DNA from: Candidatus Omnitrophota bacterium
GTDB taxonomy: Bacteria > Omnitrophota > Gorgyraeia > Gygaellales > Profunditerraquicolaceae
Direction: 5' to 3'
Assembly: GCA_028717885.1 (NCBI GenBank)
Contig: JAQUMX010000001.1
Span: 42,409-106,408 of the forward strand
Length of the DNA: 64,000 nucleotides
A model generated the notes under the pieces. That model ran no database searches. It saw only the letters and a list, made by a program, of their open reading frames with translations, and was not told where the DNA came from. Positions within the stretch are counted from its first letter, which is position 1. Each line of letters opens with the position of its first letter. Positions 450 through 46,934 of this stretch are shown one piece after another. Made by a program: the position numbers and the translations under genes.

Positions 450-2009
450 TCAATGCCTGAAATGCCTGATACCGCAAAAAACCATCGCGATTTTGTATTT
501 ATCGCAGGCCTTGATGATTTCCGCGTCGGCAATTGAACCTCCGGGCTGGATGATTGCTTTTACGCCGGCCTTTGCCGCTTCGATAACCGCGTCTTCCTTC
601 GGGAAAAACGCATCCGAAGCAAGCGCGGTATTCTTGGCTAATTTTCCGGCCTTCTTTTTCACAATCATTACGGAATCTACTCTCGACATCTGTCCTGCGC
701 CGATAGCAATGGTCTTATTGCCGTTTGCTAAAACAATGGCATTAGATTTTACATGCTTGGCTACTTTCCAGGCGAAGATTAAACTTTCCATTTCCTTTTT
801 GCTGGGCTTAATTTTGGTCACCACCTTAAGGTTGTTTAGATCAAGGGTTTCCAGGTCTTTATCCTGCACCAGCAAGCCGCCGCTAACCCGTTTAAGTTCC
901 AGTTCTGCGATCGGCTCCAAATCATATACTTCCAGTAAACGCAGGTTCTTTTTTTCTTTGAACAAAGCTGCTGCTTCGGGTTCAAAACCGGGAGCAATAA
1001 TACATTCCAGGAACCCGGCTTTGGCAATTGCCTTTGCAGCCTTAAGGTCAAGCTTGCGGTTCAATGCCACAATCCCGCCAAAGGCAGAGAGCGAATCGCA
1101 TTTCCAGGCATTGATAAATGCTTTCTCCAACGACTTATCTTCCGCAACGCCGCAAGGGTTATTATGTTTTACGATCACTGCCGCGGGCGAGCTAAATTCC
1201 TTCGCCAATTCAAAGGCAGCGTTAAGATCCAAAATATTATTGAAGGAAAGCTCTTTGCCTTGCAATTGCTTTAAATTAATCAATCCTTGGCTCTTGCCTT
1301 TTTCTTCGTAAAAGGCGGCTTTTTGATGCGGATTTTCTCCGTAACGCAGTTCCTGGATTTTTTCAAAACTTAAATTTAGCTGCTGCGGAAACTCTCCCTT
1401 ATTTTCCTTTTGCGCCGTCAAATGCTGGCTTAAATACCCAAAAATTGCCCCGTCATACTGGCTTGTCCTGCCAAATACTTCCACTGCCAAATCGCGCAGC
1501 AGCCCTTCCGGCAATGAACCTTTATTTTTTCTCAACTCTTCGATTACCTGCGCATAACGCGCCGGATTACAGATCACCGCAACCGACTGATGGTTCTTTG
1601 CCGCTGAACGCAACATTGACGGCCCGCCGATATCGATATTTTCGATTACCTCTTCGATTTTTACTCCGGGCTTCTGCGTAGTTTTTTCAAAGGGATAAAG
1701 GTTAACTACTACCATATCTATAAGGCCGATATTATGCTCCTGAATGGTCTTCATGTGCTCGCTATTTTCCCTTAAAGCCAATAATCCGCCGTGGATTTTC
1801 GGATGCAAGGTCTTTACTCTTCCGTCGAGCATTTCGGGAAAACCAGTATACTCGGAAACCTCTTTTACCGGAATATTATTTTCCCGGAATAATTTTGCGG
1901 TTCCTCCGGTAGAAAGAATCTCTACGCCGAATTTATTCAGCTCCTTGGCTAAATCCAAAACTCCGGCCTTATCCGAAACACTAATTAACGCACGCTTAAT
2001 CTTTACCAT
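450..2009 (-). CDS. purH: Bifunctional AICAR transformylase / IMP cyclohydrolase
   Basis: 519 aa. MGS-like N-terminus (KRALISVSDKAGV...) and AICARFT domain throughout. Strong SD (AAGGAGAGGAAGG) upstream of the ATG at 2007-2009. Confidence 0.9.
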   Translation of the reverse strand: MVKIKRALISVSDKAGVLDLAKELNKFGVEILSTGGTAKLFRENNIPVKEVSEYTGFPEMLDGRVKTLHPKIHGGLLALRENSEHMKTIQEHNIGLIDMVVVNLYPFEKTTQKPGVKIEEVIENIDIGGPSMLRSAAKNHQSVAVICNPARYAQVIEELRKNKGSLPEGLLRDLAVEVFGRTSQYDGAIFGYLSQHLTAQKENKGEFPQQLNLSFEKIQELRYGENPHQKAAFYEEKGKSQGLINLKQLQGKELSFNNILDLNAAFELAKEFSSPAAVIVKHNNPCGVAEDKSLEKAFINAWKCDSLSAFGGIVALNRKLDLKAAKAIAKAGFLECIIAPGFEPEAAALFKEKKNLRLLEVYDLEPIAELELKRVSGGLLVQDKDLETLDLNNLKVVTKIKPSKKEMESLIFAWKVAKHVKSNAIVLANGNKTIAIGAGQMSRVDSVMIVKKKAGKLAKNTALASDAFFPKEDAVIEAAKAGVKAIIQPGGSIADAEIIKACDKYKIAMVFCGIRHFRH

Positions 2010-2039
2010 TTACCTTCCTCTCCTTTTTTGTAGTAGTTT

Positions 2040-2304
2040 CTAACGATAAGTTATCGTACAAATGAATCTGGACGTCTTTTCGAGCGAATGGAGCTTTTAG
2101 GCAAAGCAGCTCGAACATTTTTGGGAATTCCGAGGCCGTCCGAAGGACGGCAATCTCGGAACGGCAAAATTTGTTTTAAGCGCCGAGGTAGAGACCGAGG
2201 CGCGAGTAATTTTGCCGCCAAAAATGCGAGAGATCTTTGCCGGCCCGAAGGGCAAAAGCGAATTTGAGCGAGAGAAGACGGACAGATTCATTTAAACTTG
2301 CTAA
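2040..2304 (-). promoter_or_regulatory. Structured 5' leader of purH, closed by a long-range ~19-nt inverted repeat (possible riboswitch-like element)
   Basis: AAATGAATCTGGACGTCTT at ~2061-2079 and its near-perfect reverse complement at ~2272-2300 flank ~200 nt containing several GC-rich hairpins (ccgtcc-gaa-ggacgg; gcccttcgggc; tccgag...ctcgga). Confidence 0.3.
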
Positions 2305-3006
2305 TTATTTGTTGAAACGGAAGTTTACGAGATCCGTATCTTGCATAATATATTCTTTTGGCTCCAGCCGCATTTTTCCTGCCTGCTTTACCGCATTTTC
2401 TCCGCCCAGCTGGATAAAATCATTAAAGCTAATGATTTCTGCGCGGATAAACCCTTTTTGAATATCCGAATGAATTGCGCCCGCAGCTTCCCAGGCGCTA
2501 ACTCCTTTTTTGATCAACCAGGCGCGGGTTTCCTTTTCGCCCGTCGTAAAAAAACTGATAAACCCGCCCTCTGCCACCGCGCGAAAATATAATTTATCGG
2601 TATTTTCCAGGTCATCTTTTTCCGCGATCACTACCGGCTTTAAGGTAGCCAAAGAATAGGAAGCGATTGCCTTCTTTTCCGCGTCATCTAAAGCCGCGGC
2701 TGAAGCGAATTCCTCTTTTTCCAGGGCCGCTTTTATTTTTTCGGCAATTGCTTTTTCCGCCGGCTCGCTAATCCGGCTTAAACGTGTTTCAATAAATTCC
2801 AGGTCCTTTAAGATCAGGTCTGCGCGAAAATCTTTGAGTGTCACCACTGTATCGGACTCATAAAGGCCGTCTTCGCCTACCAAATCCACCTGGACATAAG
2901 TCTTCTTTTTGGCCTTAGTAATCTTATCTACTTCATCCAAACGGCTGTCTTTAACGTTCACCTTACCTAATTTAATTTCTGGGAGAGAAAATAAAGAGAT
3001 TTTCAT
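2305..3006 (-). CDS. YchF/Obg-family protein fragment: coiled-coil insert plus TGS domain, lacking the N-terminal P-loop G-domain motifs
   Basis: 233 aa. The C-terminus (EKETRAWLIKKG...IHSDIQKGFIRAEIISFNDF...AGKMRLEPKEYIMQDTDLVNFRFN) is colinear with the YchF TGS domain. The ATG overlaps the stop of the upstream gene (TAATG), so there is no room for a G1 motif. Confidence 0.6.
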   Translation of the reverse strand: MKISLFSLPEIKLGKVNVKDSRLDEVDKITKAKKKTYVQVDLVGEDGLYESDTVVTLKDFRADLILKDLEFIETRLSRISEPAEKAIAEKIKAALEKEEFASAAALDDAEKKAIASYSLATLKPVVIAEKDDLENTDKLYFRAVAEGGFISFFTTGEKETRAWLIKKGVSAWEAAGAIHSDIQKGFIRAEIISFNDFIQLGGENAVKQAGKMRLEPKEYIMQDTDLVNFRFNK

Positions 3007-4964
3007 TAAACTTCCACTTCTGCTTTCCTAGTTGCCTGGTATTGGTTAATAATTCCCGAAGCGATTCTTTGCGGGACTTCTTCATAATGCGAATAACGCA
3101 TGGTGTACGAGCCTCTGCCGCCGGTTAAAGAACGTAAGTCATTGGCATAGGTAAACATTTCCGCTAACGGCACATTGGCTTTAACAATCTGTGATTTTCC
3201 TTTGATATCCATACCCATGATCCTGCCGCGGCGGGAATTAATATCTCCGGAGATTGCCCCCAAATATTCTTCGGGGATTACGATATCAACGCTCATAATC
3301 GGCTCCAACAAAACCGGGCCGGCTGCCATGACTGCTTTTCTCAAAGCCATTGCCCCGGCAATCTGAAAAGCCATATCCGAAGAGTCAACTTCATGATAAG
3401 AACCGTCATAAAGGATCACCCGGATATCCTGGATCTGATAACCGGCAACCGCACCTTCCAAACAGGCCTGCCGAATTCCTTTCTCCGCAGAAGGAATAAA
3501 ATTCCTGGGGATCGCTCCGCCAAAAATCTTATCGACGAATTCAAAACCTTTTCCTCTTTCCATAGGCTGAATTTCGATCCAGACATCGCCGTACTGGCCG
3601 CGGCCCCCGGATTGGCGCTTGAATTTCCCCTGGACCTTAGCGCTCTTGGTAATCGTCTCCTTATAAGAAACCTTTGGTGTGCCTAAATCTACTTCGACAT
3701 TAAACCTTTTTTTCAGCCGCTCTACCATAACAGTTAAATGCAGGTCCCCTAAACCGGAAATAATCAATTCTTTTGTCTGCGGGTCATGCATCACTTTAAA
3801 AGTCTGGTCTTCTGAAGTCAATTTATGTAAAGCCACGGAAATTTTATCTTCATCTGCGCGGGTTTTTGGCTTCACCGAAGCGGAAATCGCCGGCTCGGGG
3901 AAGACAATCGGGTCAAAAAGCAGCGGGTTTTTCTCATCGCTCAAGGAATCCGAGGTGAGAGTTTCTTTTAATTTTGCAATTGCCACAATATCACCGCAGG
4001 AGGCCTGGTCAGTAGTACGCTCTTCTTTTCCCTGAAGCAGATAAACCGGGCCGATCCTTTCTTTGACCCGCTTGTTCACATTATAAAAACCGGTATTTGC
4101 CATTAATTTCCCGCTAAAGATCCTCAACAGAGAAAGCTGGCCCACATAAGGATCAGCGATCGTCTTAAAAACAAAAGCAGATAATGGCGCGTCTTCCTTA
4201 AGTGCGATCTCCTTCTTTTCTTCCGGCTTTGCCGGATTACCTGCCTCCACTTTCAGCCTTTCTAAAGGAGAGGGCAGATAATGTATTACCGCACCCAGCA
4301 ATTCTGCTATCCCCTTATCGCTTAAGCCGGAGCCGGTCAACACCGGAAAGACCTTACGGTTATCTACTGCCAAGTGCAGGCCCTGGGTAATTTCTTCGCT
4401 GGAGAGCTTTTCTCCACCAAGATATTTTTCCAGTAATTTATCGTCGCTTTCTGCGACTGCTTCGATTAAATCCGGAGCATCCATGGATTCCAAGGTGACT
4501 GCGTTCTTGGAAAGCCGTTCCTTGATATCCAGAAGCGTTTTTTGCGCATCTGCCCCTTCTTTATCGGTCTTATTGATAAAAATAAGGCACGGCAACCCTG
4601 ATTCTTCCAATAATTGCCAGGCGCGCTCTGTACCGACCTCTACGCCGCTGGTAGCATCTACTACCAAAATCGCGCTATCAACCGCGCGGATACCGGAGAT
4701 CGCCTCCCCGAAGAAATCAGCGTATCCGGGAGCATCGATAATCTGGATTCTTGTTCCCTGGTAATCGCAATAAAGCAGGCTAAAATTAATCGAGCTTTTT
4801 CTTTCGATTTCATCAGCGCTATAGTCGCTGACTGCGGAGCCTTCCATTACTGAACCTCTACGGGGGGTAGCTTTACAAAAATAAAGCATGCTTTCTGCGA
4901 GGGTGGTCTTTCCGGACTGGGCGTGGCCTAAGAGGATAAAATTCCTTTTATTCTTGGCATCCAT
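3006..4964 (-). CDS. EF-G-like translational GTPase paralogue (EF-G2/ribosome-protection-like)
   Basis: 652 aa. G1 GHAQSGKTTL, G3 DAPGYADF and G4 NKTDK are present, but the G2 region is divergent (EIERKSSI instead of ERGITI). Domain II-V-like C-terminus. Confidence 0.7.
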   Translation of the reverse strand: MDAKNKRNFILLGHAQSGKTTLAESMLYFCKATPRRGSVMEGSAVSDYSADEIERKSSINFSLLYCDYQGTRIQIIDAPGYADFFGEAISGIRAVDSAILVVDATSGVEVGTERAWQLLEESGLPCLIFINKTDKEGADAQKTLLDIKERLSKNAVTLESMDAPDLIEAVAESDDKLLEKYLGGEKLSSEEITQGLHLAVDNRKVFPVLTGSGLSDKGIAELLGAVIHYLPSPLERLKVEAGNPAKPEEKKEIALKEDAPLSAFVFKTIADPYVGQLSLLRIFSGKLMANTGFYNVNKRVKERIGPVYLLQGKEERTTDQASCGDIVAIAKLKETLTSDSLSDEKNPLLFDPIVFPEPAISASVKPKTRADEDKISVALHKLTSEDQTFKVMHDPQTKELIISGLGDLHLTVMVERLKKRFNVEVDLGTPKVSYKETITKSAKVQGKFKRQSGGRGQYGDVWIEIQPMERGKGFEFVDKIFGGAIPRNFIPSAEKGIRQACLEGAVAGYQIQDIRVILYDGSYHEVDSSDMAFQIAGAMALRKAVMAAGPVLLEPIMSVDIVIPEEYLGAISGDINSRRGRIMGMDIKGKSQIVKANVPLAEMFTYANDLRSLTGGRGSYTMRYSHYEEVPQRIASGIINQYQATRKAEVEV

Positions 4965-5083
4965 AGACTTTCGCTCCTTCGTTAAAAAATAATCCTAATA
5001 TTTTTGGGGGTAAATCGGATTGAATTATTTTTTAAGAGATAATCAAATTATAGCTCGGTAAGCTGGGAGGGTCAAGCAATACT

Positions 5084-8000
5084 TTAACGCCAGGGGCCGA
5101 TTAATTTGGAAACATTCACCGTGCTGGATGTACTGTCAGTAATACCATTGCTATCCGTGACCGTCAAAGTTACTTCGTAGGTTTTATCCTGCCACCAAGG
5201 AGAATTGCGAAAAGTGTGGTCTGGGTTGGCCGCGGCAGATGAAGTGCCGTCCCCAAAATTCCAGTTGTAGCTCGCAATATCGGCGCCATCAGCCTCGGAG
5301 TTGGCGGCATTGAATTTAACTGCGGAGCCAGTAGTGGGAGCCGGAGTTTCAATAGAAATCTTTGCCTTTGGCGGCAGTTTTACGTGTAGAGTCACGGTTG
5401 CGCTATCAGAATCAAGCGCTCCGTCATTAGCCTTAAAAGTAAAGGAATCATCTCCTATATAATCGGTATTAGGCGTATATGTCAGGTCAGGCGCTGTTCC
5501 GGATAAGGTGCCGCTGGCCGGATTAGTCAGAACAATATAGGTTAGGCTATCTTTATCCTTATCCGTAGCTTTTAAAGTAATTGTTTTTGGCGTATTTTTC
5601 CGGACGTTGACTGATTGACTCTGGCTTACAGGCGCGTGGTTAACATGCTTTACTTTAATTGAAACAGTTGCCGGATCAGATTCCAGTTGACCATCACTGG
5701 CTTTAAAGGTAAATGAATCGTCTCCATAAAAACTCTCACTCGGAGTATAGGTCAAATTCGCAGCTGTTCCGGTTAATGAGCCGTTGCTAGGATTAGTAAC
5801 CACGGAATAGGTCAGGTTATCGCCATCAGCGTCGGTTGCGCTTAAAGTAATTGCGACAGGCGTATCTTCGTCAGTATTTACAGACTGATTGTGGCTATTC
5901 GGCCGATGATTAGTATGCCTGACGTTGATCGATACAGTAGCGGTATTGGAATCAAGATGGCCGTCATTGGCCTTGAAGCTAAAGGAATCCGTGCCTTTAT
6001 ACTTATTATTAGGCGTATAGGTCAAATTCGCAGCTGTTCCAGTTAATGAGCCGTTGCTAGGATTAGTAACCACGGAATAGGTCAGGTTATCGCCATCAGC
6101 GTCGGTTGCGCTTAAAGTAATTGCGACAGGCGTATCTTCGTCAGTATTTACAGACTGCTCATTAGCATATGGGGTATCGTTGATGGCATTTATCGTAATC
6201 GTGACAGTAGCGGTGTTGGAATCCGCCAGGCCGTCATTAGCCTTAAAGGTAAAGGAATCTGGCCCGTTATAATTCGCAGTCGGCGCATAGTTCAGGTTAG
6301 GCGCTGTGCCTGAGAGCGTACCATGCGCAGGATTAGTCACCACGGAAAAAGTCAAATCATCGCCGTCTACATCGGTAGCGGTCAAAGTAATATCTTTAGC
6401 CGTATCTTCATCCGTGGTTACGGATTGGTTATCGGCTATTGGCGCGTTGTTATTAGAAACCTCGGTAATCCCATCCGAATAACCGATACTGCTCCAACTC
6501 CCTGCCCCGTTCTTAGCTTTTACGCTAAAATAATAGGTCGTGCCTTTTACCAAACTTAAACCTCCGGAAGTAACTGATGCGGTCGTGCCGGTAGAGGTCC
6601 AATCAACGATTGCTTCTCCATCGGCAGAGTCTTGGGTAATTTTGTATTGGTATTCCTGGATCCCTGACTCTGCATCAGTAGAGCTAAAAGAAGCGTATAG
6701 CTGATTCTGATTGGAAGTCGTAGCGCCCTCATCGGTAACTACCGGTGTCGTGGGCGCACTAGTATCACCGGCTGCTGCCACTGCCCGGGCAGCATTGATC
6801 CTGCCGTAACCGAAGTAAGAATCTTTTCCTGCTGCACCGAGGTCATCGGCGCTAGAACGCAATAACCATCTGATTTCTGCGTCGGTAAGGCTAACGTTTT
6901 TAGCCAATATTAAAGCTATCGTGCCGGAAACATGCGGGCAAGCCATTGAGGTGCCCGAGGCTTCGGCGAGGTAATTCTCGTCCGTAGCTAAACTTAAAAT
7001 TTTCACTCCCGGAGCCGATACCCACACCGCATCTCCCCAGTTAGATTCCGTGTAACGCGCATCATTATAATCCGTGCCGGAAACTGCGATCACTTTCGCG
7101 TAATTGGCAGGAGAATAATAAGCCACATCATCGTTACTATTGCCCGCGGCAAAAGTAATAATACAGCCTTTTGAATAGGCATAATCTACTGCTGCTTCTG
7201 CCACCGGGTCATAAGCTAATCTGGACTCCGGCCCCCAGCTATTATTGACCACCCGCGCTCCGTTATCAGCGGCATAATGTATCCCTTCGGCTAAATCAGT
7301 AACATATCCCGAACCACCATCCCCTAATCCTTTACAAACCATAATCTTGGAATTAAAAGCAATGCCCACGACTTCATAATTATTATTCCCCACTGCGGCA
7401 ATAGTCCCTGCGACATGCGTTCCATGGCCGACAACATCCGTGGGATTGCCGTCCCTGTAAACAAAATCGTAGCCATTTACGTCATCGATGTAGCCGTTCC
7501 CGTCGTCATCAACACCGTTGCCGGCTATTTCATCGGAATTAACCCAGAGATTGCTTTGTAAATCAGGGTGGCTTAAGGCAGCTCCGGTATCTACTACAGC
7601 CACTACAATATTATCGCCCCGGGAACTATCCCACGCCGTGCCGCACTGAATTTTTTTTAGGCCATAAAGATCATCAAAAGGACCTAAAAGCCCGCTCGAA
7701 CTGTAAAACGGGTCATTCGGAGTAAACGAACTCTTCATGCGGTAATTTGGCTGGGCGAATTCAACTGAAGAATTATTTTTTAAAATAGAGACCACTTCTT
7801 CCGTAGTTGCCCCTTCGGGAATGGTAATTTTATAAATCCGGAATAATCTTTGCTCTTCCGGGCTTAATTTCTTATAGGCCTCGGCAAAAATCTCTTCTTC
7901 GGTTACCTCCTGGTATTTTTTTCCAAAGAACCAATACCAATTATCCGAATCCTTTTCCAAACGGTTTTCTTTTTTGAATTGGTTCACTACGCGGGTAATC

Positions 8001-8401
8001 GGAAAGACCCTTTTTAATTCCAGATAGGGGATTTTTGCTTCTGCGAGTGCGCGGGAAGGCGACGCATTCTCTTTAAAACCCACCACCACCTGGTTTTCTA
8101 CCGGCTGAATAACAGGAGCAGCGTTTTCCTCAGGCACCGCTACCTGCGTAGCGGGTGTTTCGCCATCGCTTAAAGCCTTTTGCCGCACTTGGCCATCTTG
8201 CTTGCTCAGCTGGTTCACTGGATAAAGCACAAATTCGCCTTTTTCTATGCCTTTCATTGGTTCGGCATTATTATTTGTATTCGGCTCTTCTTGCTCCGGA
8301 ATAAAGATTTTATTGATCGCCTCTTCGCCGGCAGCATTTGGATGCATTGGCCAAGAAAGAAACACAAGTAAGAGGATGCAGATCGTCATATTTTTGATCA
8401 T
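5084..8401 (-). CDS. Secreted subtilisin-like (S8) serine peptidase with four tandem cadherin/Big-like repeats and a C-terminal PKD domain
   Basis: Signal peptide MIKNMTICILLLVFLSW. S8 triad motifs VAVVDTGA, HGTHVAGTIAA and GTSMACPHVSG. Four ~90-aa repeats (SVNTDEDTPVAITLSATDADGDNLTYSVVTNP...). PKD-like WNFGDGT at the C-terminus. Confidence 0.85.
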   Translation of the reverse strand: MIKNMTICILLLVFLSWPMHPNAAGEEAINKIFIPEQEEPNTNNNAEPMKGIEKGEFVLYPVNQLSKQDGQVRQKALSDGETPATQVAVPEENAAPVIQPVENQVVVGFKENASPSRALAEAKIPYLELKRVFPITRVVNQFKKENRLEKDSDNWYWFFGKKYQEVTEEEIFAEAYKKLSPEEQRLFRIYKITIPEGATTEEVVSILKNNSSVEFAQPNYRMKSSFTPNDPFYSSSGLLGPFDDLYGLKKIQCGTAWDSSRGDNIVVAVVDTGAALSHPDLQSNLWVNSDEIAGNGVDDDGNGYIDDVNGYDFVYRDGNPTDVVGHGTHVAGTIAAVGNNNYEVVGIAFNSKIMVCKGLGDGGSGYVTDLAEGIHYAADNGARVVNNSWGPESRLAYDPVAEAAVDYAYSKGCIITFAAGNSNDDVAYYSPANYAKVIAVSGTDYNDARYTESNWGDAVWVSAPGVKILSLATDENYLAEASGTSMACPHVSGTIALILAKNVSLTDAEIRWLLRSSADDLGAAGKDSYFGYGRINAARAVAAAGDTSAPTTPVVTDEGATTSNQNQLYASFSSTDAESGIQEYQYKITQDSADGEAIVDWTSTGTTASVTSGGLSLVKGTTYYFSVKAKNGAGSWSSIGYSDGITEVSNNNAPIADNQSVTTDEDTAKDITLTATDVDGDDLTFSVVTNPAHGTLSGTAPNLNYAPTANYNGPDSFTFKANDGLADSNTATVTITINAINDTPYANEQSVNTDEDTPVAITLSATDADGDNLTYSVVTNPSNGSLTGTAANLTYTPNNKYKGTDSFSFKANDGHLDSNTATVSINVRHTNHRPNSHNQSVNTDEDTPVAITLSATDADGDNLTYSVVTNPSNGSLTGTAANLTYTPSESFYGDDSFTFKASDGQLESDPATVSIKVKHVNHAPVSQSQSVNVRKNTPKTITLKATDKDKDSLTYIVLTNPASGTLSGTAPDLTYTPNTDYIGDDSFTFKANDGALDSDSATVTLHVKLPPKAKISIETPAPTTGSAVKFNAANSEADGADIASYNWNFGDGTSSAAANPDHTFRNSPWWQDKTYEVTLTVTDSNGITDSTSSTVNVSKLIGPWR
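5760..6160. repeat. Near-identical ~129-nt direct repeat (period 270 nt) inside the protease gene
   Basis: 5760-5888 and 6030-6158 are essentially identical at the nucleotide level. Two further diverged copies follow, matching the protein domain repeats. Confidence 0.8.
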
Positions 8402-8436
8402 TTTTATACCTCATATATATTTGGGGCCTGACAAAC

Positions 8437-8505
8437 AAAAACCCCTAGGGTAAATTCCTAGGGGTAGATAAACAAAAAACTCTAAAGGTAATCTTTAGAG
8501 TTTTT
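8437..8505 (-). terminator. Two tandem rho-independent-type hairpins
   Basis: cccctaggg-taaattc-ctagggg and ctctaaag-gtaatc-tttagag, each flanked by an A-run on one side and a T-run on the other. They lie downstream of the minus-strand OMP gene. Confidence 0.5.
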
Positions 8506-8696
8506 CTCTTCTGGCAGCTCCGCTACCCCCGACAAAAATGTCTTGGGCCGGAAGCTTTGCGCCCCCAGGTTACCCTGAGTTTACCTTTTTCAGTATTACA
8601 AAATACCAAATTGTCAAATTACCATTACATAAAAAAGTATAGCATATTTTAAAGGTTTTTCAATAATCGGCGCTATATATAGGTAAGGGTTTAGGG

Positions 8697-9935
8697 CTAC
8701 CAGATATACCTTAATATTACGGAAGGATAATAGAGGATGCTGTTGACGTTTCTGATAAAATCTTCATTATCATAAATCAGGCCTGGCTGGTTGGCCGATT
8801 CTTTAAGTTTGCGCTGTTTACGCAGGAAATAATTGAAAGCAACGCCTCCCATAAGATGGGAAGTGATTTTATAGTCCAACTCGATCGACGCATCTATGCC
8901 AAAGCCGTTCCTGCCGTGCTGCTCGAAAACATTATTGGTCAGGTTCCACCAGCCATATGCTTTTGTAGTCAGCCACGCATAGGCAAACTCCATCCGGCCG
9001 GAAAACCTGCCGGAGGTAACTAAAGTACGGAATCCGAACCTGGGGCCGCGGTAGAAAACCTTGTAAAACGAATCTTCTCCGGCAATCGGATTATCCGTCG
9101 GCACCCACCACTCCACGGTATCTATTTTGTCGGTAGTGCGGTAACGGCTTTTTTGCCACTGGTAACCTACCAACAGGTCAAAAATCAAGCTGTCGTTGGG
9201 ATTACCCATTTTGAATAAATCGAATAGTTCGCCGAATTGCTTGTTTTCCCGCACCGTATCGGCATTTAAATCCAGTAGCCGGTAATAAAAATTAATATCC
9301 GAAAGCTGCGCCTGTGCTTTTTCGCGCGAATGCGACTCAAACCAGATGTCGGGATTAGTTGCCGGCTGCCAGTCGGTATCTGTAGCATATGATTTTTTAA
9401 AAAGGCTGCTGTCGAATTTTCCGCCAAGGAAAAATTTATCCAAATATCCCATCTCTCCTTTAACGCCGTACATTTGCCCGCGGTTCGGATAAAATAAGCG
9501 CGAGATTTTCCTGCTCGCGCCGTCAATAACCTCGAAGGTTTGCTCTCCCTGAACACAAAAACCGTATTCCATGGCCAAATCAAATTCCAATTTAGACAAA
9601 ACTTTCTCAATGGTAGATTTTCTTGCGTTTGAGGCATCTTTGGAACCTTCAATAAGAGGATTGCCTGCAGGAGGGTCGTTAGCTAATGCGGGATCTTGCT
9701 GGCTTAACCCCTGATCAAGCATCACGGAGTTTAAAGCATCTTCTCTTTGTGCGCGGGAATGAATGACTGATTCGGTGAGGTCCAGGAACTGATTGATTTG
9801 ACCGGCCCTTATATCCGTAGGCATCTCTGCCAGGGCAAACACGGGAAAAAGCAAAAACCCAAACAGGAAAATCTTCCCCGATAAATGCTTATTCAAGGTA
9901 AGTATAAATTTTGCCCTTAAAATTGCGCAAAACAT
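8697..9935 (-). CDS. Outer-membrane beta-barrel protein (signal peptide, C-terminal aromatic residue)
   Basis: The ORF-track frame is 8697..10007. The likely start is the Met at 9935 (MFCAILRAKFILTL...FALAEMP signal), which leaves only a short overlap with the kamA stop. Ends ...VILRYIW. Alternating amphipathic pattern. Confidence 0.4.
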   Translation of the reverse strand: MFCAILRAKFILTLNKHLSGKIFLFGFLLFPVFALAEMPTDIRAGQINQFLDLTESVIHSRAQREDALNSVMLDQGLSQQDPALANDPPAGNPLIEGSKDASNARKSTIEKVLSKLEFDLAMEYGFCVQGEQTFEVIDGASRKISRLFYPNRGQMYGVKGEMGYLDKFFLGGKFDSSLFKKSYATDTDWQPATNPDIWFESHSREKAQAQLSDINFYYRLLDLNADTVRENKQFGELFDLFKMGNPNDSLIFDLLVGYQWQKSRYRTTDKIDTVEWWVPTDNPIAGEDSFYKVFYRGPRFGFRTLVTSGRFSGRMEFAYAWLTTKAYGWWNLTNNVFEQHGRNGFGIDASIELDYKITSHLMGGVAFNYFLRKQRKLKESANQPGLIYDNEDFIRNVNSILYYPSVILRYIW

Positions 9936-11085
9936 ACTTTCCTTTTGCCTGAGAAAGGATATAGTTTGGCCCAACGGGAATTTTTCCGCCGCCGCCCGGG
10001 CCGTCAATCACATAGGTGGGCACTGCATAGCCCGAAGTGTGGCCGCGTAATTTTTCCATGATATTTATCCCTGCGGCTACGGGCGTACGGAAATGCTGCG
10101 TCCCTCTTACGGGATCGCATTGATAAATATAATAGGGACGGACCCTAATTTGCAGTAATTCATGCACCAGGCGCTTCATAATATACGGCCGGTCATTAAT
10201 CCCTTTTAAAAGCACGGTTTGGCTGCCTAAAGGAATCCCCGCGTCGGAAAGCATATCACAGGCAATCTTGCAACGCTTGGTAATCTCTTTAGAATGATTG
10301 AAATGGATGCTGATCCAAAGCGGAGAATATTTTTTGAGCATATTCACTAGTTTTTCGGTCACGCGCTGCGGCAAAGTAACAGGCACGCGCGTACCGAGCC
10401 TTAAAAATTCCACATGGGAAATTGCGCGGATTTTTTGGATCAGGTTTTCCAGCTCTTCATCCTCAAGGATCAAAGGATCCCCTCCGGAAATCAAAACATC
10501 GCGGATTTTGCGGTTGGATTTAATATATTCAACGGCTGCGTCAAATCTTTGCGCGCCACTTTCTTCTTTTTGCTCATGTTCGCCGACCAGGCGCCTGCGA
10601 GTGCAGTGCCGGCAATACATTGCGCAGTGATCGGTAGCTAATAATAAAACCCTGTCCGGATAACGGTGCACTAAATGCGGCGCAGGAGAATCCCTGTCTT
10701 CGGCGCAAGGGTCGGTCATTTCATGCGGAGAAATCAATGACTCGGCTTCCACGGGGACTGCTTGCCTTCTGATCGGGCATTCCGGGTCTTCCGGGTCAAG
10801 CAAGGCTGCCCAATAAGGGGTAATCGCCATAGAAAGCCTGCCCTTGGCTTTATCCACACCTTTTTCTTCTTCCGGGGTTAATTTAATGATCTGGGAAAGT
10901 TCTTCTTTGTTGCGGATACGGTTCTTTAACTGCCAATGCCAATCCTCCCAATCCAAAGGGTTGACATCTTTATAAATACTGATCTGTTGATAATCGCGGA
11001 TCCTTTTGATTTGGCGCGCAGGAGTAATTTCCGTTAATAACTTTTGCTGCTCGGCAACAACGGTATTACTGTTTGTGCTGCTCAA
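9889..11085 (-). CDS. kamA: Lysine 2,3-aminomutase (radical SAM, KamA family)
   Basis: 398 aa. CAMYCRHCTRRR CxxxCxxC motif in KamA-type context, PLP-binding region. Colinear with KamA/EpmB over the full length. Confidence 0.85.
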   Translation of the reverse strand: MSSTNSNTVVAEQQKLLTEITPARQIKRIRDYQQISIYKDVNPLDWEDWHWQLKNRIRNKEELSQIIKLTPEEEKGVDKAKGRLSMAITPYWAALLDPEDPECPIRRQAVPVEAESLISPHEMTDPCAEDRDSPAPHLVHRYPDRVLLLATDHCAMYCRHCTRRRLVGEHEQKEESGAQRFDAAVEYIKSNRKIRDVLISGGDPLILEDEELENLIQKIRAISHVEFLRLGTRVPVTLPQRVTEKLVNMLKKYSPLWISIHFNHSKEITKRCKIACDMLSDAGIPLGSQTVLLKGINDRPYIMKRLVHELLQIRVRPYYIYQCDPVRGTQHFRTPVAAGINIMEKLRGHTSGYAVPTYVIDGPGGGGKIPVGPNYILSQAKGKYVLRNFKGKIYTYLE

Positions 11086-12086
11086 TTGGACTTACCTTTC
11101 CTTTCTGAAGCGCTAAGCAATATCGCTTCGATTAAATCTTCGTAGCGCATGCCCGCGGCATAGGCCATGATCGGGAAATTAGATTCCTTAGGGTCTAAGC
11201 CCGGTAAAGGGTTGATTTCCAAAACATACGGCACATTATTAGAATCAAGCCGGATATCGGTCCGGGAAATATCCAGGCAGCCTACTGCACGGTGCGTCTT
11301 GAGCGCTGCTTCTTTAACCAATTCTTCGGTTTTTTTATCCAGGCGCGCAGGGCAGTGAAAAGTAGGGACCAATCCTAATTGTTCGTTACCCTGGAATTCT
11401 TTCATCCTCCAGGAATAAAAATATTCTCCGCTGTTTTTGCAGGTGGAAAAATCGATCTCCAGGATAGGCAGTATTGAAGTCTTGCCGTTTTCCAGAATAC
11501 CGACGGTCAATTCCTTACCTTCGATAAATTCTTCTACCAGGGCCTCCTGTTTATACACGCGGATCACTTCTTTTACCTTATTCATAAGGTCCTGCTGATT
11601 ATGCACCACGTTGGATTTATTAATCCCTTTGGCCGATCCTTCGCAGTTGGGCTTGACAATCAAAGGAAATTTCAAATCCGGCGATAACGCAGCATTCTCT
11701 TTGGAAAAAACCTGGAAATTCGGAGTAATTACCCCTTCTGCTTTTAATATTTTTTTCGTAAGCGCCTTATTCAAAGCAAGCGCCAGAGAAAAAGTGCTCG
11801 AACCGGTGTAAGGAATATTCAAATAATCCAGGATTGCCGGGACTTCAGATTCGCGGAACTTTCCGCATCTTCCCTCTGCGATATTAAAAACCATATCTAC
11901 GCGGTTTTTCTTAAAAAAAGAAAAAAGGCGCGGGTATTCCACATCGATTGCTTCGACGCTGTGCCCTTTGGTTTTTAGAGCAGAGACAATTGCGCCTATG
12001 GTCTCTTCGGAGTCAAATTCGGAGAAATAATCCTCGGGCTTGGTCTGGTCCTTTTTCTTCAAATTATAGGTAAGTGCGACTTTCAT
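11082..12086 (-). CDS. ATP-grasp ligase, D-alanine--D-alanine ligase-like
   Basis: 334 aa. Ddl-like three-domain layout; ATP-grasp motifs (FPLIVKPNCEGSAKGI, ...EEFIEGKELTVGIL..., LEINPLPGL). Start overlaps the kamA start codon region (ATGA). Confidence 0.7.
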   Translation of the reverse strand: MKVALTYNLKKKDQTKPEDYFSEFDSEETIGAIVSALKTKGHSVEAIDVEYPRLFSFFKKNRVDMVFNIAEGRCGKFRESEVPAILDYLNIPYTGSSTFSLALALNKALTKKILKAEGVITPNFQVFSKENAALSPDLKFPLIVKPNCEGSAKGINKSNVVHNQQDLMNKVKEVIRVYKQEALVEEFIEGKELTVGILENGKTSILPILEIDFSTCKNSGEYFYSWRMKEFQGNEQLGLVPTFHCPARLDKKTEELVKEAALKTHRAVGCLDISRTDIRLDSNNVPYVLEINPLPGLDPKESNFPIMAYAAGMRYEDLIEAILLSASERKGKSN

Positions 12087-12093
12087 CTGTATT

Positions 12094-13086
12094 TTAATTA
12101 AGGTTATACCTCTTGATTGCGCTATCCAGTATTTTTCCGATCATCTGTTCATAAGTAATCCCGATCTCTTTTGCCACCAACATAAAAACATCTTCCGTGG
12201 AAAGCGAAGGAAGCGGGTTAATTTCCAAAACAAAAGGGTTCCCCTCGTTATCTACGCGGAAATCTACCCTCCCAAAATCACGGCATTCAACCGCAGTATA
12301 AGTCTTTAAAGCCAAATCCTCGATTTTTTTCCTTAATTCCGGAGCGAGCCTCTCCGGACAAACATATTCCAGCCTGTCGGAAGTAATCCTGGCAAAGGTA
12401 TAGAATTTATCGTTAAGCTTGAACCTGCCGTCAATTTTAATCTGTACGATGGGCAACACCTCCGGCTGGTCATTTCCCACGATTGCCACGGTAAATTCCT
12501 GGCCGCTGATAAATTCCTCGACCAGCGCCGGCTGTTTATAGGTAGTCACGATAAATTCAACCTGTTTTTTTAGCTCATCCATATTTTCCACGCGGGAATT
12601 TTCGCTCAAACCCTTGGAAGAGCCTTCAAAACGCGGTTTTACGATTAAAGGAAACTTGCAATGGTCCGCATTTACCAATTCCTCCGTATTTTTTACCTCG
12701 AAAAATTTCGGCGTAGGGATTTTTTCCGCGATAAAAATCTTTTTTGCCATCACCTTATCCAAGGTAAGCCCCAATGTCAAGGCATCGGCCCCGACAAAAG
12801 GTATTCCTGCCATTTCCAGAACTACCGGCACTTGCGATTCGCGGTTCCTGCCCGTCATACCCTCGGAAATATTAAAAACAATGTCAACTTTCAACGAATC
12901 GATTTTTTCCAGAAGGTTGGTGACATTGCCGATACGCTCGACCTTAAAGCCGTTTGCCTCGATAGCCTTGGCAATGACGTCGATAGTGGATGGCGCGTCG
13001 AATTCCGCATTTGCATCCTCCGGATCATCGGCTTTAAATTTATAATCTGTTTTTAAATCGTAGGTTAACCCGACTTTTTTAGCCAT
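12094..13086 (-). CDS. ATP-grasp ligase, D-alanine--D-alanine ligase-like (second tandem paralogue)
   Basis: 330 aa, same architecture as the neighbouring ligase (FPLIVKPRFEGSSKGL; EEFISGQEFTVAIV; LEINPLPSL). Confidence 0.7.
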   Translation of the reverse strand: MAKKVGLTYDLKTDYKFKADDPEDANAEFDAPSTIDVIAKAIEANGFKVERIGNVTNLLEKIDSLKVDIVFNISEGMTGRNRESQVPVVLEMAGIPFVGADALTLGLTLDKVMAKKIFIAEKIPTPKFFEVKNTEELVNADHCKFPLIVKPRFEGSSKGLSENSRVENMDELKKQVEFIVTTYKQPALVEEFISGQEFTVAIVGNDQPEVLPIVQIKIDGRFKLNDKFYTFARITSDRLEYVCPERLAPELRKKIEDLALKTYTAVECRDFGRVDFRVDNEGNPFVLEINPLPSLSTEDVFMLVAKEIGITYEQMIGKILDSAIKRYNLN

Positions 13087-17838: not shown

Positions 17839-18684
17839 TTATATCGGCATCAACAAAAAGGAAGTTTCTTTTAAGAATATTTTTCCGAAATTTTTCTTTA
17901 GATAGCGCGCAGGGAGGTTTTTAATAATACAACAGTATCGGTTGCGCAGGCCAAAAATAAGGTAATCTTTTTTCATCGGCGTATTATCTTTTCTGGTAGC
18001 GCCGCGTTCGTGATAAGCTACTGCGGAAGGGTTATAAACACATTTCCAGTTCCTTAAACACGCCCTCCAGGAAAGGTCCACATCTTCCACGTAATTCACG
18101 AAGTCCTCGTCAAAAAATTCCCGTCCGGATCTTATATCCTCCAGCATCGCTTTCCGGTATAAAGGAGCTGCCCCGCATGCGCCAAATACAAGCGCGCCTT
18201 CAGAATTATCGTATTGACCGCGGTCTTCTTCGCTCTGCCCCCGCGGATGCATGAAACAATGCCGCATGGTAATGCCGGTAGAATCCAGGATTTTGGTTTT
18301 GTTGCCGTTAGTCTGCCGGTAAAGCTTCCCGGAGACAATGCCGATTGATGAATCGTTTTTCATCATCTTTACCATCTCCCCCACAAAATCCGGTTCCAAA
18401 AATACGTCGAAATTAAGCGGCAAAATAAATTCGCCTTTGGCTAGATGAATGCCTAAGTTGTGGCTCTTGGAAAACCCTAAGTTTTCTTTATTTTTTACAA
18501 TCTTTACCTGAGGAAAATTTTTCGCGATGTATTCCAGAGAAGAATCCGTAGAACTGTTATCTACGACTATGAGTTCAATCGCAGGATAAAGCTGTTTCTT
18601 TATGGAATCCAGGCATTTCTCGATATAGCCCGATGAATTCCAATTTACGATGGTAATAGAAACTAACCCTTCAGCGCTTTTCAT
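17839..18684 (-). CDS. Family 2 glycosyltransferase
   Basis: VSITIVNWNSSGYIEKCLDSIKKQ...ELIVVDNSSTD; LNFDVFL. Confidence 0.7.
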   Translation of the reverse strand: MKSAEGLVSITIVNWNSSGYIEKCLDSIKKQLYPAIELIVVDNSSTDSSLEYIAKNFPQVKIVKNKENLGFSKSHNLGIHLAKGEFILPLNFDVFLEPDFVGEMVKMMKNDSSIGIVSGKLYRQTNGNKTKILDSTGITMRHCFMHPRGQSEEDRGQYDNSEGALVFGACGAAPLYRKAMLEDIRSGREFFDEDFVNYVEDVDLSWRACLRNWKCVYNPSAVAYHERGATRKDNTPMKKDYLIFGLRNRYCCIIKNLPARYLKKNFGKIFLKETSFLLMPI

Positions 18685-44609: not shown

Positions 44610-44995
44610 TTTACGACGCTTCCTAATTTAACCTCTTTTTGCGGGCTAACTACCACAATCCCGTTTTCATCGGAAGCAGCCAGGATCATCCCCTGGCTTT
44701 CCACTCCCCGTAAGATCGCCGGCTCTAAATTATCTACGACTACCACTAATTTCCCGACTAAGTCTTCTTTTTGATAATAGGCCCTGATGCCTGCCACAAC
44801 CTGTTTCTGCCTATCGCCTAAGTCCAAAGTCAAAAGATAAAGCTTATCCGCATTCGGATGATCCAGGACTTCCTTGATTTTGGCGACCCTTAATTCCAAT
44901 TTTCGAAAATCTTCGATTGTAATCATTAAAGTCCTCCCTATTTTTCTTTTTTTAACTAAAGCTGAACGGAATTTATTTATGCGGGGAGCCGTCAA
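44606..44995 (-). CDS. tRNA-binding-domain protein (Trbp111/CsaA/EMAP-II-like OB fold)
   Basis: 129 aa with LELRVAKIKEVLDHPNADKLYLLTLDLGD...QVVAG, the hallmark of the standalone tRNA-binding domain. Confidence 0.7.
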   Translation of the reverse strand: MTAPRINKFRSALVKKRKIGRTLMITIEDFRKLELRVAKIKEVLDHPNADKLYLLTLDLGDRQKQVVAGIRAYYQKEDLVGKLVVVVDNLEPAILRGVESQGMILAASDENGIVVVSPQKEVKLGSVVK

Positions 44996-46121
44996 TCATT
45001 TCTGCGCGGGCATGAGCAACCTCGCAGAAATATTCTACCGGGGTATCCATCTTCCCAGTTTCTAAATGCGCATGGGCAGGGCACCAGATACAAAGATTAA
45101 CCAATGAACACTTGCGGCACTTATCCAAAAATGCTTTATTATCCGAACGCAGGTCCCTGACCTGCAGCACGAATTTTTCCCAAATCTGGCTTAAATCTCC
45201 TGTTTTTAAATCGCAGATGCACTGCGGATGCCATAATGAAGAACAAAGGCGGAAGTACCCTTCGTAACTGACCGTGAAACTACCGTTACCGGTTCCACAA
45301 TGAAAAAGATGATTGCAATTAAAATGCTCGAATTCCGGGTTGATCAATTCATTGCAGCCCTTCCTTAAAGCCCCGTAGCGTTCATCGTCCGCTTTTTCTA
45401 TCGCTACGATTTCTTTCGGAGAAAGCCGTTCGGATTTAATCTCTTCGTTGCGCTTTGGATTTGCATCGAAGCGCAAATGCAAAAACGGATCGAAGCGAAA
45501 ATAATCTTTCGTCCTCTCCCGGCAAAATTCGGAAATTAAAGGCAGCTCATGCACATTGGAGCGGATTGCCATTGCCTTATAGCGCACCTTAATCCCGTTA
45601 TCTAGGAGCATCTTCAAGCCCCGCATAAAAGCCTTAAAAGAGCCCTTTTTATTGCTTACCTTTTCATATGTTGCTTCGGTAACGCCGTATACCGTTACTT
45701 CGATATCCCGGGGAGGGTATTTTTTAAAAAGATCGATGTGTTTCTGCGTAATCAGCGTGGCATTGGTAAAAACCGAAATAAACAACCCCTTCTTCTTAAG
45801 GTACATATAGATTTCAAAAAAATCTTCCCGCAAAAGCGGTTCTCCTCCGGTAAGCAAACACCAGAGTGCGCCCAAGGAAACTGCCTGGTCGACGATTGCC
45901 TTGATCTGCTCTAAAGGGATTTCTTTTTTCTTCGCCTCTAAATCGTTTTGAGGCAGGTTAATGTAGCAGTGCCGGCAATCGTTGTTGCAGCGGGCGGTCA
46001 GTTCCAAATCAAATGAAATGACATTGCGCTGGTTGCGCATTTTTTCCCAGACCGGGAATTCAGGCAATGACATGCTGGAAACAAACATTTCGTTGTTTTG
46101 CGGTTTTTCTTCTTCCATCAT
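44973..46121 (-). CDS. Radical SAM / SPASM-domain peptide-modifying enzyme
   Basis: CNNDCRHC cluster motif near the N-terminus; C-terminal Cys-rich SPASM region (CGTGNGSF...C...CRKCSLVNLCIWCPAH). Confidence 0.8.
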   Translation of the reverse strand: MMEEEKPQNNEMFVSSMSLPEFPVWEKMRNQRNVISFDLELTARCNNDCRHCYINLPQNDLEAKKKEIPLEQIKAIVDQAVSLGALWCLLTGGEPLLREDFFEIYMYLKKKGLFISVFTNATLITQKHIDLFKKYPPRDIEVTVYGVTEATYEKVSNKKGSFKAFMRGLKMLLDNGIKVRYKAMAIRSNVHELPLISEFCRERTKDYFRFDPFLHLRFDANPKRNEEIKSERLSPKEIVAIEKADDERYGALRKGCNELINPEFEHFNCNHLFHCGTGNGSFTVSYEGYFRLCSSLWHPQCICDLKTGDLSQIWEKFVLQVRDLRSDNKAFLDKCRKCSLVNLCIWCPAHAHLETGKMDTPVEYFCEVAHARAEMIDGSPHK

Positions 46122-46633: not shown

Positions 46634-46925
46634 CGAGCATATTCCTTTTCATTAACTCCTGGGTAAACCCAAGAATATCCTGTTCTATGTCGCTTGTACC
46701 GCTTTCAAAATCGCTGCTTAAATCTTTGGCAATTACTTTTAATGTTTTTTTACCATCCATCCTGTCCCAGATCGCCCTCCCGGTTTCATTCAGGGTAAAT
46801 ATTTCATCCTCCAGGTCGCCGATTCCGCTGGTGATAGGGATAATGATAAATTCTCCTTGTACCTGCCGCGCTACCACATCTTCACTGGGTTTATAAACTT
46901 TTTCGATGCTCACCTTTTTCTCCAT
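46617..46925 (-). CDS. PqqD-family protein (RiPP recognition element)
   Basis: 102 aa with the PqqD pattern (...FTLNETGRAIWDRMDGKKTLKVIAKDLSSDFE...DILGFTQELMKRNMLV). Confidence 0.7.
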   Translation of the reverse strand: MEKKVSIEKVYKPSEDVVARQVQGEFIIIPITSGIGDLEDEIFTLNETGRAIWDRMDGKKTLKVIAKDLSSDFESGTSDIEQDILGFTQELMKRNMLVEIGK

Positions 46926-46934
46926 ACCACCCTC

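Follow-up and report, generated by a model that had tools for sequence, protein, structure and literature searches.

The minus strand of a 64,000-nucleotide (64-kb) stretch of DNA from a Candidatus Omnitrophota bacterium (contig JAQUMX010000001.1 of assembly GCA_028717885.1, positions 42,409 to 106,408), referred to in its full length as the window, carries two adjoining genes for relatives of ribosome-associated nucleoside triphosphatases (NTPases). The first (3006..4964), delimited from the list of open reading frames (ORFs) and from profile matches, encodes a 652-residue EF-G paralogue of the EF-G2 type (EFG II), while the second (2305..3006), delimited from the ORF list and by alignment, encodes a 233-residue protein that we term mini-YchF. 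In the sequence TAATG at their junction (3004..3008, minus strand; read directly from the DNA), the EF-G2 stop codon TAA occupies positions 3006-3008 and the mini-YchF ATG positions 3004-3006, such that base 3006 is common to both and a one-base overlap results; an initial annotation of the region had described this as an overlap of the YchF stop with the following ATG, whereas it is the EF-G stop that overlaps the ATG of the YchF-like gene. On its 3' side the pair is followed by purH (450..2009, minus strand; ORF list), a neighbour that is conserved in relatives and shares 76-81% identity with the MGS/AICARFT_IMPCHas genes located 3' of mini-YchF in loci L001-L006. Throughout, positions are window coordinates, and L001, L002 etc. 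are our labels for compared loci. In public data, sequences matching exactly or closely bear the name Candidatus Omnitrophica/Omnitrophota.

In Pfam, the 233-residue protein has a single match, the YchF C-terminal/TGS family PF06071 (121.6 bits, profile positions 2-84 of 84), and it does not pass the cut-off of the YchF equivalog model TIGR00092 (140.6 vs. 279.2). The initial annotation had the protein start downstream of the site of the P-loop. This does not hold: the first strand (MKISLFSLP) aligns with β1 of canonical YchF, the N-terminus is not truncated, and alignments to canonical YchFs reveal an internal deletion of ~27 residues that comprises the P-loop, helix α1 and switch I. Further deletions affect switch II and the helix belonging to it, a β/α segment, the hairpin tip and ~55 columns containing G4 (NxxE) and G5, amounting to five internal deletions in total and a protein that is ~130 residues shorter than YchF. 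An N-terminally truncated or split gene was rejected as an explanation because the deletions are internal and five in number. When the short-form ORFs are read from the upstream stop codon, none has a Walker A motif of the type GxxxxGK[ST] within its initial 80 residues, the G4 variant (N/T)(M/L/V)xE and G5 are absent from the mini-YchF alignment, and a leftover DxxG (VDLVGE) is not kept in distant members.

Three parts remain, all encoded on the minus strand. Residues 1-57 (2836..3006; alignment and AlphaFold2) form a remnant of the G-domain sheet with β1, β2, a helix, β3 and β4 and comprise the segment KDxRLDxVDKITKAKKKTY, which aligns to VPDxRLDxL of YchF; predicted strands encompass residues 2-6, 14-18, 38-43 and 53-57, and the invariant residues in this N-terminal part are K19, R22, L23, D24, V26, D27, K33, K35, Y37 and Q39. 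Residues 58-113 (2668..2835; AlphaFold2 and HMMER alignment) constitute a shortened helical hairpin, the counterpart of the YchF coiled-coil insert, with predicted helices at residues 58-78 and 82-96 and a gap at the tip that measures 9 residues in the HMMER comparison with residues 129-217 of 1jal and about 20 columns in the multiple alignment. Residues 148-233 (2308..2565; PF06071 and YchF comparison) make up the TGS/YchF C-terminal domain, in which residues 149-232 match residues 279-362 of Haemophilus influenzae YchF (1jal) with 95.9 bits and the motif HSDIQxGFIRAE is near-invariant. The proposal that the helical insert and an intact TGS domain are retained is borne out for the TGS domain, while the insert is kept in shortened form with its tip deleted.

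More than 120 clusters with 65-88% identity all consist of proteins of 233-234 residues. Mean column identity amounts to 78%, all regions are under purifying selection, and invariant residues are found throughout. AlphaFold2 modeling with 40 orthologues yielded a predicted local distance difference test score (pLDDT) of 93.8 and a predicted template modeling score (pTM) of 0.85, and the top 15 Foldseek hits were all YchF/OLA1 structures with query-normalised TM-scores of 0.66-0.81, 1jal being the best (0.81). According to the model, mini-YchF confidently folds as a trimmed YchF composed of a five-stranded sheet stub, a shortened hairpin and a TGS domain. As judged from its sequence it is a genuine pseudo-NTPase with no nucleotide-binding element left, in agreement with the initial annotation, which had proposed this status: G1, G2, G4 and G5 are all gone. 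Since every nucleotide-related feature of YchF has been lost while the fold has been kept, the protein should not be filed as a YchF ATPase.

YchF/OLA1 proteins are among the most widely conserved P-loop NTPases, and their cellular role is still debated. With these proteins (TIGR00092; PDB 1JAL, 2DBY, 2OHF, 8KIE) mini-YchF shares the three-lobed fold, the order of β1, β2, hairpin and TGS domain and the motif HxDxxxGFIRAE. It differs from them in lacking Walker A, the switch I Thr, a functional DxxG, NxxE and G5, and in a conserved KAKKK segment that it has acquired. The site bound by full-length YchF on the 50S ribosomal subunit is uL14/bL19/H62, which it contacts mainly via the hairpin tip and with a proposed contact of the TGS domain to h5, and promotes subunit splitting; in Escherichia coli YchF, the tip lysines K149, K152, K156 and K159 bind H62 of the 50S subunit. 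Unlike E. coli YchF, mini-YchF does not possess the lysine-rich tip that contacts this helix of the 23S rRNA. The NCBI name of the mini form is "DUF933 domain-containing protein", and no paper describing it was found in a full-text search for DUF933 and in searches on YchF without a P-loop. Apart from its presence in databases under a DUF name, mini-YchF therefore appears to be a new, apparently not yet described pseudo-NTPase form of a known family.

Among 1.84 billion cluster representatives, about 25 clusters (50% level) contain full-length mini-YchF proteins of 225-235 residues with identities down to 32%, and one of these stems from the complete 1.28-Mb Omnitrophota genome CP070684.1 (L007). 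A scan of GTDB species genomes, in which 80 loci were kept of at least 600 matched stretches, revealed the 233-residue form in 13 of the kept loci (53-67% identity), six of them labelled Omnitrophota and four Verrucomicrobiae/Opitutaceae/Verrucomicrobia, including one on a 5.16-Mb chromosome. The three remaining loci carry the labels Margulisiibacteriota, Limnocylindrales and Acidoferrum (L013, L016, L019; mini-YchF identity 58-65%), and the L013 contig looks mis-binned or mislabelled because its mini-YchF is flanked by Omnitrophota-type EF-G2 and purH. A sister group of 229-residue proteins exhibits the same deletion pattern and occurs in metagenome-assembled genomes (MAGs) labelled Lentisphaerota, Marinimicrobia and Thermodesulfobacteriota, with Latescibacterota, Spirochaetes and Planctomycetota as further labels; 1500 matches were obtained at E ≤ 1e-10, and nearly all among the matches listed have 229 residues.

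Among full-length proteins, mini-YchF is closest to divergent YchFs of ~340-357 residues with intact GxxxSGKT P-loops and a retained G4/G5 half, which have the HSDI/LxxGFI variant of the TGS motif in common with mini-YchF. They originate from MAGs labelled Gemmatimonadota, Planctomycetota, Myxococcota and Neomarinimicrobiota; none of these nearest full-length relatives bears an Omnitrophota label, and from such a mixture of phyla we draw no inference on the ancestor. Two full-length relatives have a damaged Walker A motif, namely GLAQTGKK in a protein of 343 residues (L039:4393-5424) and GWPGNGRD in one of 339 residues (L047:3742-4761), and by their sequences may represent intermediates towards lost nucleotide binding. 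Two other "full-length" YchF cluster representatives, P0256 and P0267, are internally duplicated or permuted, with a 46-residue block being repeated in P0267, and are probably assembly artefacts on short contigs.

With regard to the occurrence of complete YchF alongside the mini form, tblastn with canonical YchF queries detected no YchF G domain elsewhere in the 64-kb window, and with mini-YchF as query it gave no further match there. In the source data of Seymour et al. (2023), in which KEGG Orthology (KO), Pfam and TIGRFAM values are binary and give no EF-G copy number, the entry after K06941 in the KO lists of genomes 58 and 231 is K06962, and K06942 (ychF) is therefore missing; genome 58 lists PF06071, a pattern that fits a genome with the mini form only. 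TIGR00092 is listed for genomes 104 and 194 of the same data set, and in two other genomes CheckM places PF06071 at residues 284-366 and 299-382, respectively, which corresponds to full-length YchF. Both states, mini-only-like and full-length YchF, thus exist in the Omnitrophota.

The protein encoded by the upstream gene of the pair matches GTP_EFTU, EF-G_D2, EFG_III, EFG_IV and EFG_C, all above the Pfam gathering scores. Its best NCBIfam model is NF009381 ("elongation factor G", PRK12740.1-5, a sub-model of the EF-G2 cluster) with a score of 839 vs. a cut-off of 583. It also exceeds the cut-off of NF009379 (531 vs. 513) and marginally passes the canonical EF-G equivalog TIGR00484 (670.4 vs. 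659.4), and it stays below those of NF009377, the model actually named EF-G2 (576 vs. 890), and of the Bacteroides-type EF-G2 model NF058620 (509 vs. 1000). Identity as TetM/TetO was rejected on the basis of NF012153 (317 vs. 775), as was identity as spdEFG, the defining features of which are not found: switch I reads GSVMEGSAVSDYSADEIERKSSI and is devoid of the three-residue KDG insertion that marks spdEFG1.

The GTP-binding motifs of EF-G2 comprise the P-loop (G1) GHAQSGKT at residues 13-20 (4905..4928), followed by Leu22; switch I/G2 EIERKSSI at residues 52-59 (4788..4811), in which Ser58 replaces the Mg-coordinating Thr of RGITI; G3/switch II DAPGY at residues 77-81 (4722..4736), in which Tyr81 replaces the catalytic His; and G4 NKTD at residues 131-134 (4563..4574). 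All are located on the minus strand and were read directly from the sequence and compared in an orthologue alignment. G1, G3 and G4 next to a divergent switch I had already been recognized in the initial annotation, which had overlooked Tyr81 at the site of the catalytic His as well as the shortened G'. In an alignment of 13 orthologues with identities down to 57%, invariant positions are G13, H14, A15, Q16, G18, K19 and T20 in G1, R55, S58 and I59 in G2, D77, P79, G80 and Y81 in G3 (DxPGYxDF) and N131, K132 and D134 in G4, together with the GS (GSG/GSA) motif and, at the tip of domain IV, RQSGGRGQYGD as well as DGSYHEVDSSD. Leu22, which aligns with Leu25 of 1WDT and is replaced by Thr in canonical EF-G, is kept in at least 90% of the orthologues. 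The Omnitrophota orthologues share 57-90% identity, and very many contigs of this phylum carry the gene.

About 48 residues of the G' subdomain are deleted, with the junction at about residues 155-164 (4473..4502, minus strand; alignment to Staphylococcus aureus EF-G); residues 5-183 align to residues 9-188 of S. aureus EF-G and residues 164-641 to residues 212-689. An acidic helix, EAVAESDDKLLEKYL, is kept at the deletion junction. The L010 orthologue has about 23 more residues at this site and matches NF009381 end to end. An AlphaFold2 model calculated with 15 close orthologues reached a pLDDT of 57.6 and was therefore not used. The terms "degenerate" and "pseudo-GTPase", which the initial annotation had applied to this protein, are not appropriate: EF-G2 is not degenerate because all motifs for GTP binding are present and do not vary among orthologues, and its altered G2 is a published EFG II feature (PMC3150367). 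Its sequence conservation is that of a GTP-binding protein under constraint, the catalytic center of which is unusual but fixed.

According to Margus, Remm and Tenson (2011; PMC3150367), EFG II proteins keep G1, G3, G4 and G5, the RGITI motif is relaxed to xxxSx with Ser for Thr (RxxSI and r/kxxSI in sub-subgroups), GKTT is followed by a Leu (Leu25 in 1WDT, given as a conserved position), and the gene lies outside the str operon, while a lone EF-G gene is always of type EFG I and normally part of the str operon. The window protein agrees with EFG II/EF-G2 in its five-domain architecture, the Ser in G2 (RxxSI type), the Tyr in place of the catalytic His, NKxD and the position of its gene outside a str operon. 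With Thermus thermophilus EF-G-2 (1WDT) it shares GHAxSGKTTL and DAPGYxDF (DAPGYGDF in 1WDT), and this protein has the most similar G-domain core (108.8 bits), followed by mitochondrial RRF2/EF-G2 (94.7 bits) and canonical EF-G (about 88-91 bits).

The deviations from EFG II are that domains III-V are far closer to canonical EF-G than would be expected for the "fast-evolving" EFG II, and that the protein, with its trimmed G', fails NF009377, its match being the sister model NF009381. EFG II proteins are marked by domains I, II and III that are weakly conserved relative to EFG I; in the window protein, identity to S. aureus EF-G is low for the G core (34%) and domain II (31%) and amounts to 46% for the G' remnant and to 52, 58 and 59% for domains III, IV and V, respectively. 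In comparisons with solved structures, domains II-V match canonical EF-G with 503 bits and the G domain with about 95 bits; because domains III-V are so close to canonical EF-G, whole-protein scores favor the latter (599 bits) over 1WDT (444 bits). With canonical EF-G (EFG I, fusA) the protein has the domain order, the domain IV tip loops and the marginal pass of TIGR00484 in common, while it lacks AHIDAGKT, RGITI, DTPGH, a complete G' and the adjoining rpsG and tuf genes. Bacteroides thetaiotaomicron EF-G2 (PDB 7UVP; NF058620) resembles it as a second EF-G with altered G2, the variant found in Bacteroidetes being YGYSV as opposed to RKSSI in the window. On sequence grounds, the window protein is a member or a close sister of a known class, the published hallmark of which is the altered G2.

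That the gene is of the paralogue type and not the fusA of a str operon, as proposed in the initial annotation, is supported by the EFG II/EF-G2 signature and by the unrelated genes on either side: it is flanked by a subtilase gene and by mini-YchF/purH in the window and by kamA-like and purH genes in relatives. No ribosomal-protein or tuf gene was found near it among the window ORFs, and tblastn with the EF-G2 protein detected no second EF-G in the 64-kb window. Several chromosomes among 176 complete Omnitrophota genomes analyzed in a 2026 preprint feature the contiguous order S12→S7→EF-G→EF-Tu→S10→L3. Across the same genome pairs, identity is 73-78% for EF-G2, 76-81% for PurH and 80-83% for the KamA-like protein. 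EF-G2 is hence no better conserved than its metabolic neighbors, unlike what would be expected for a sole EF-G. By analogy, a canonical fusA is probably present elsewhere in the genome.

The order EF-G2→mini-YchF→purH was found in 12 distinct loci (the window, L001/2, L003, L004-6, L009, L010, L012-15, L018 and L021), usually followed by folC, mnmE and folE, at mini-YchF identities as low as 43% in L009 and 36% in L010. Start and stop codons overlap in the window (1 base) and in L010 (4 bases) only, while a gap of 6 to about 100 nucleotides is present elsewhere. The order is absent from L007, a complete genome in which mini-YchF follows a gene resembling class Ic tRNA synthetases, from L008, L011 and L017, from all Verrucomicrobiota-type loci and from the 229-residue group; in L016 and L020 mini-YchF follows uvrA. 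Locus L017 (1264-9477), labelled Omnitrophota, contains two ATP-grasp genes, kamA, mini-YchF, purH, folC and mnmE, with EF-G2 missing from its usual slot. Ribosome-related neighbors of other kinds recur in unrelated lineages: a 229-residue mini-YchF directly follows BipA and DeaD in L094 (1215-5690) and an ABC-F-type ATPase in L043 (2773-5178), and a 234-residue mini-YchF in L011 (5001-6453) precedes a pseudouridine synthase (S4 and PseudoU_synth_2). The description as a "translationally coupled pair" thus overstates the link, given the gaps in loci other than the window and L010, L017 without EF-G and mini-YchF without EF-G2 in several groups. Judged by gene order, the pairing is an old and often retained operon arrangement and not an obligatory coupling.

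Upstream of the EF-G2 ATG, the Shine-Dalgarno-like sequence AAGGAG (4974..4979, minus strand; read from the sequence) is located at a distance of 9 nucleotides and is preceded by a σ70-like match TTGACC-17-TATAAT (5047..5075, minus strand) that agrees with the consensus at 11 of 12 positions; this is a consensus match only, and 4 promoter-like sites were observed over the whole region vs. 4.1 expected from shuffles. Further on the 5' side of EF-G2 follow a subtilase-like gene (1105 residues, with repeated cadherin-like segments) and an ORF of 436 residues without Pfam match, then a radical-SAM gene of the KamA type and a pair of ATP-grasp genes resembling those of D-Ala-D-Ala ligases. The subtilase gene and the 436-residue ORF (5084-10007) look like an insertion into a conserved block because the kamA-like and EF-G2 genes directly adjoin in relatives. 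The TTG start of the 436-residue ORF overlaps the kamA-like ORF by 119 nucleotides and is probably mis-called. The block formed by the KamA/AblA-type lysine 2,3-aminomutase and the two ATP-grasp genes (9889-13086, minus strand) is also present in L001, L003, L004 and L017, lies directly 5' of EF-G2 in most relatives and could make a β-lysine-containing product or modification; the KamA-like protein scores 522.5 with TIGR03820 (cut-off 525.4) and more weakly, with 258 bits, as the EF-P modifier EpmB. On the other side of the pair, the spacer between mini-YchF and purH (2010-2304) measures 295 nucleotides as compared with about 11-110 nucleotides in relatives, and a GIY-YIG gene occupies this place in L009. 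Neither an Rfam scan of positions 1900-5300, which include this spacer, nor a terminator scan of the spacer revealed a match or a convincing terminator-like site.

In a Pfam scan of 20 window ORFs, polysaccharide-synthesis and radical-SAM genes and no ribosomal-protein genes were encountered. Three consecutive radical-SAM genes (382, 393 and 651 residues) are located at 44973-50068, the first of them followed by an ORF of 171 residues without Pfam match, and an ORF of 996 residues at 18681-21671 encodes a glycosyltransferase fused to a radical-SAM/SPASM domain. Both regions are embedded in an extended series of minus-strand genes for glycosyltransferases and O-antigen-ligase-like proteins.

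We consider it likely that the two genes form a small operon for two non-canonical relatives of ribosome-associated NTPases, an EF-G2 and a mini-YchF devoid of a nucleotide site. At the level of sequence, the two genes show no damage, are under constraint and have an arrangement suited to co-expression, and EF-G2 keeps the GTP pocket and the domain IV loops needed for translocation, combined with a Tyr where the catalytic His would be and a reduced G'. In Mycobacterium smegmatis EF-G2, the catalytic H88 corresponds to Y98 and the protein is without ribosome-dependent GTPase activity (PDB 9K0Z/9K10). For an EF-G paralogue of Bacteroides, translocation is reported to proceed with no hydrolysis of GTP (Han et al., 2023, cited in PMC12775393), and this protein serves as our functional model for the window EF-G2. 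By analogy, EF-G2 would bind both GTP and ribosomes, the latter stimulating its GTP hydrolysis little or not at all, and would either carry out translocation slowly while sparing GTP or act on ribosomes specifically under stress, beside the canonical EF-G of the str operon. With no nucleotide-binding element left, mini-YchF cannot act as an ATPase; our best guess is that it would function as a nucleotide-independent adaptor that binds the ribosome or RNA via the cleft between TGS domain and hairpin, in a binding mode that probably differs from that of E. coli YchF. Both proteins would thus probably act on the ribosome. Their arrangement, conserved in the lineage, would imply co-transcription and co-expression and no obligatory complex.

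Several points weigh against this reading. T. thermophilus EF-G-2, which also has the Tyr, reportedly possesses ribosome-dependent GTPase and poly(Phe) activity; Tyr81 is therefore no proof of lost hydrolysis, which is likely but not certain. The deletion of the lysine-rich hairpin tip means that the canonical mode of 50S binding may be lost in mini-YchF, many mini-YchF loci have unrelated neighbors (uvrA, thiolase, homoserine dehydrogenase), the support for a canonical fusA is a preprint statement on other Omnitrophota genomes, and the 52-59% identity of domains III-V to canonical EF-G together with the TIGR00484 pass leave room for a primary factor.

The adjacency of the two genes might also reflect inherited gene order in a compact genome without any functional link, each gene acting alone, an explanation that we regard as possible, albeit doubtful. 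It would account for the presence of clearly unrelated metabolic genes in the block of ATP-grasp, ATP-grasp, kamA, EF-G2, mini-YchF, purH, folC, mnmE and folE, for the variation of the gap between EF-G2 and mini-YchF from -4 to about 100 nucleotides, for insertions in the block (subtilase and 436-residue ORF in the window, the GIY-YIG gene in L009) and for the fact that EF-G2 can drop out, as in L017. However, the order survives down to 36% mini-YchF and 43% PurH identity, which is longer than neutral synteny usually lasts, and mini-YchF stands beside other ribosome NTPases in unrelated phyla.

The opposite extreme, a mini-YchF that is the dedicated partner or subunit of EF-G2 and, e.g., regulates or stabilizes its GTP state or replaces the trimmed G' on the ribosome, appears unlikely. 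While adjacency is kept as mini-YchF identity falls to 36% and that of EF-G2 to 55-57%, start/stop overlaps occur in two distant lineages and both proteins are hydrolysis-impaired versions of ribosome NTPases, mini-YchF is found without adjoining EF-G2 in L007 and L017, both Omnitrophota, as well as in L008 and L011, the family thrives without neighboring EF-G2 in the Verrucomicrobiota-type and 229-residue groups, and L010 has the overlap yet a much less trimmed G'. Rather improbable, too, is the more far-reaching proposal that mini-YchF is the only YchF of the clade and works with a hydrolysis-impaired EF-G2 as a nucleotide-sparing ribosome module (e.g., in subunit splitting/anti-association or slow translocation under energy limitation), the family as a whole being a nucleotide-free adaptor that relies in trans on a neighboring ribosome NTPase, be it EF-G2, BipA/DeaD or ABC-F.

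We attach very little weight to the idea that the EF-G-like protein is the sole housekeeping EF-G of the organism with a G domain that diverged in this lineage, so that the clade would translate without the catalytic His. It is in line with the passed TIGR00484 cut-off, the high identity of domains III-V and the invariant tip loops of domain IV, the strong Shine-Dalgarno sequence and the 11/12 promoter match and the presence of the gene on very many Omnitrophota contigs. It conflicts with the EFG II signature motifs, the lack of a str operon around the gene, the rule that an EF-G gene without a second copy is invariably of type EFG I (PMC3150367), the S12-S7-EF-G-EF-Tu order on complete Omnitrophota chromosomes (preprint), the retention of the neighborhood without EF-G2 in L017 and a conservation lower than that of PurH or the KamA-like protein in the same genomes. 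That the YchF-like ORF is a decaying pseudogene, or that a frameshift or assembly artefact conceals a normal YchF, could be suspected from the missed TIGR00092 cut-off and the 130 missing residues but is practically out of the question, as more than 120 clusters derived from independent assemblies share a fixed length of 233-234 residues, every region is strongly conserved, the AlphaFold2 fold is confident, the missing parts are five separate internal segments, the EF-G coding sequence is conserved to its last residues and extends right to the ATG so that a G domain could not fit in, the two genes are separated by -4 to about 100 nucleotides in relatives and canonical YchF queries match nothing else in the window (tblastn), all of which means with respect to the frameshift issue raised in the initial annotation that none could restore a P-loop.

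Returning to the small operon of EF-G2 and nucleotide-site-less mini-YchF as the preferred reading, its EF-G part is of an already known kind and its YchF part is moderately surprising. The former adds a phylum-wide EF-G2 with trimmed G' to a known class and mainly provides comparative material on how far a translocase paralogue can alter its G domain. As for the latter, mini-YchF fails TIGR00092, which we take to be one of the bac120 marker genes, and marker-based completeness estimates and phylogenies therefore count YchF as missing in such lineages. At least one genome of the Omnitrophota lacks the ychF KO but has PF06071, a hint that the mini form has replaced YchF rather than been added to it. 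A conserved family that spans multiple phyla and keeps the fold, the hairpin and the TGS domain without a nucleotide site implies that part of YchF function is independent of ATP, and mini-YchF can be regarded as a natural "separation-of-function" variant for the role of the TGS domain and the hairpin on the ribosome. These findings suggest that YchF, a widely conserved ATPase, can be maintained in a form that is free of nucleotide and associates with the ribosome.

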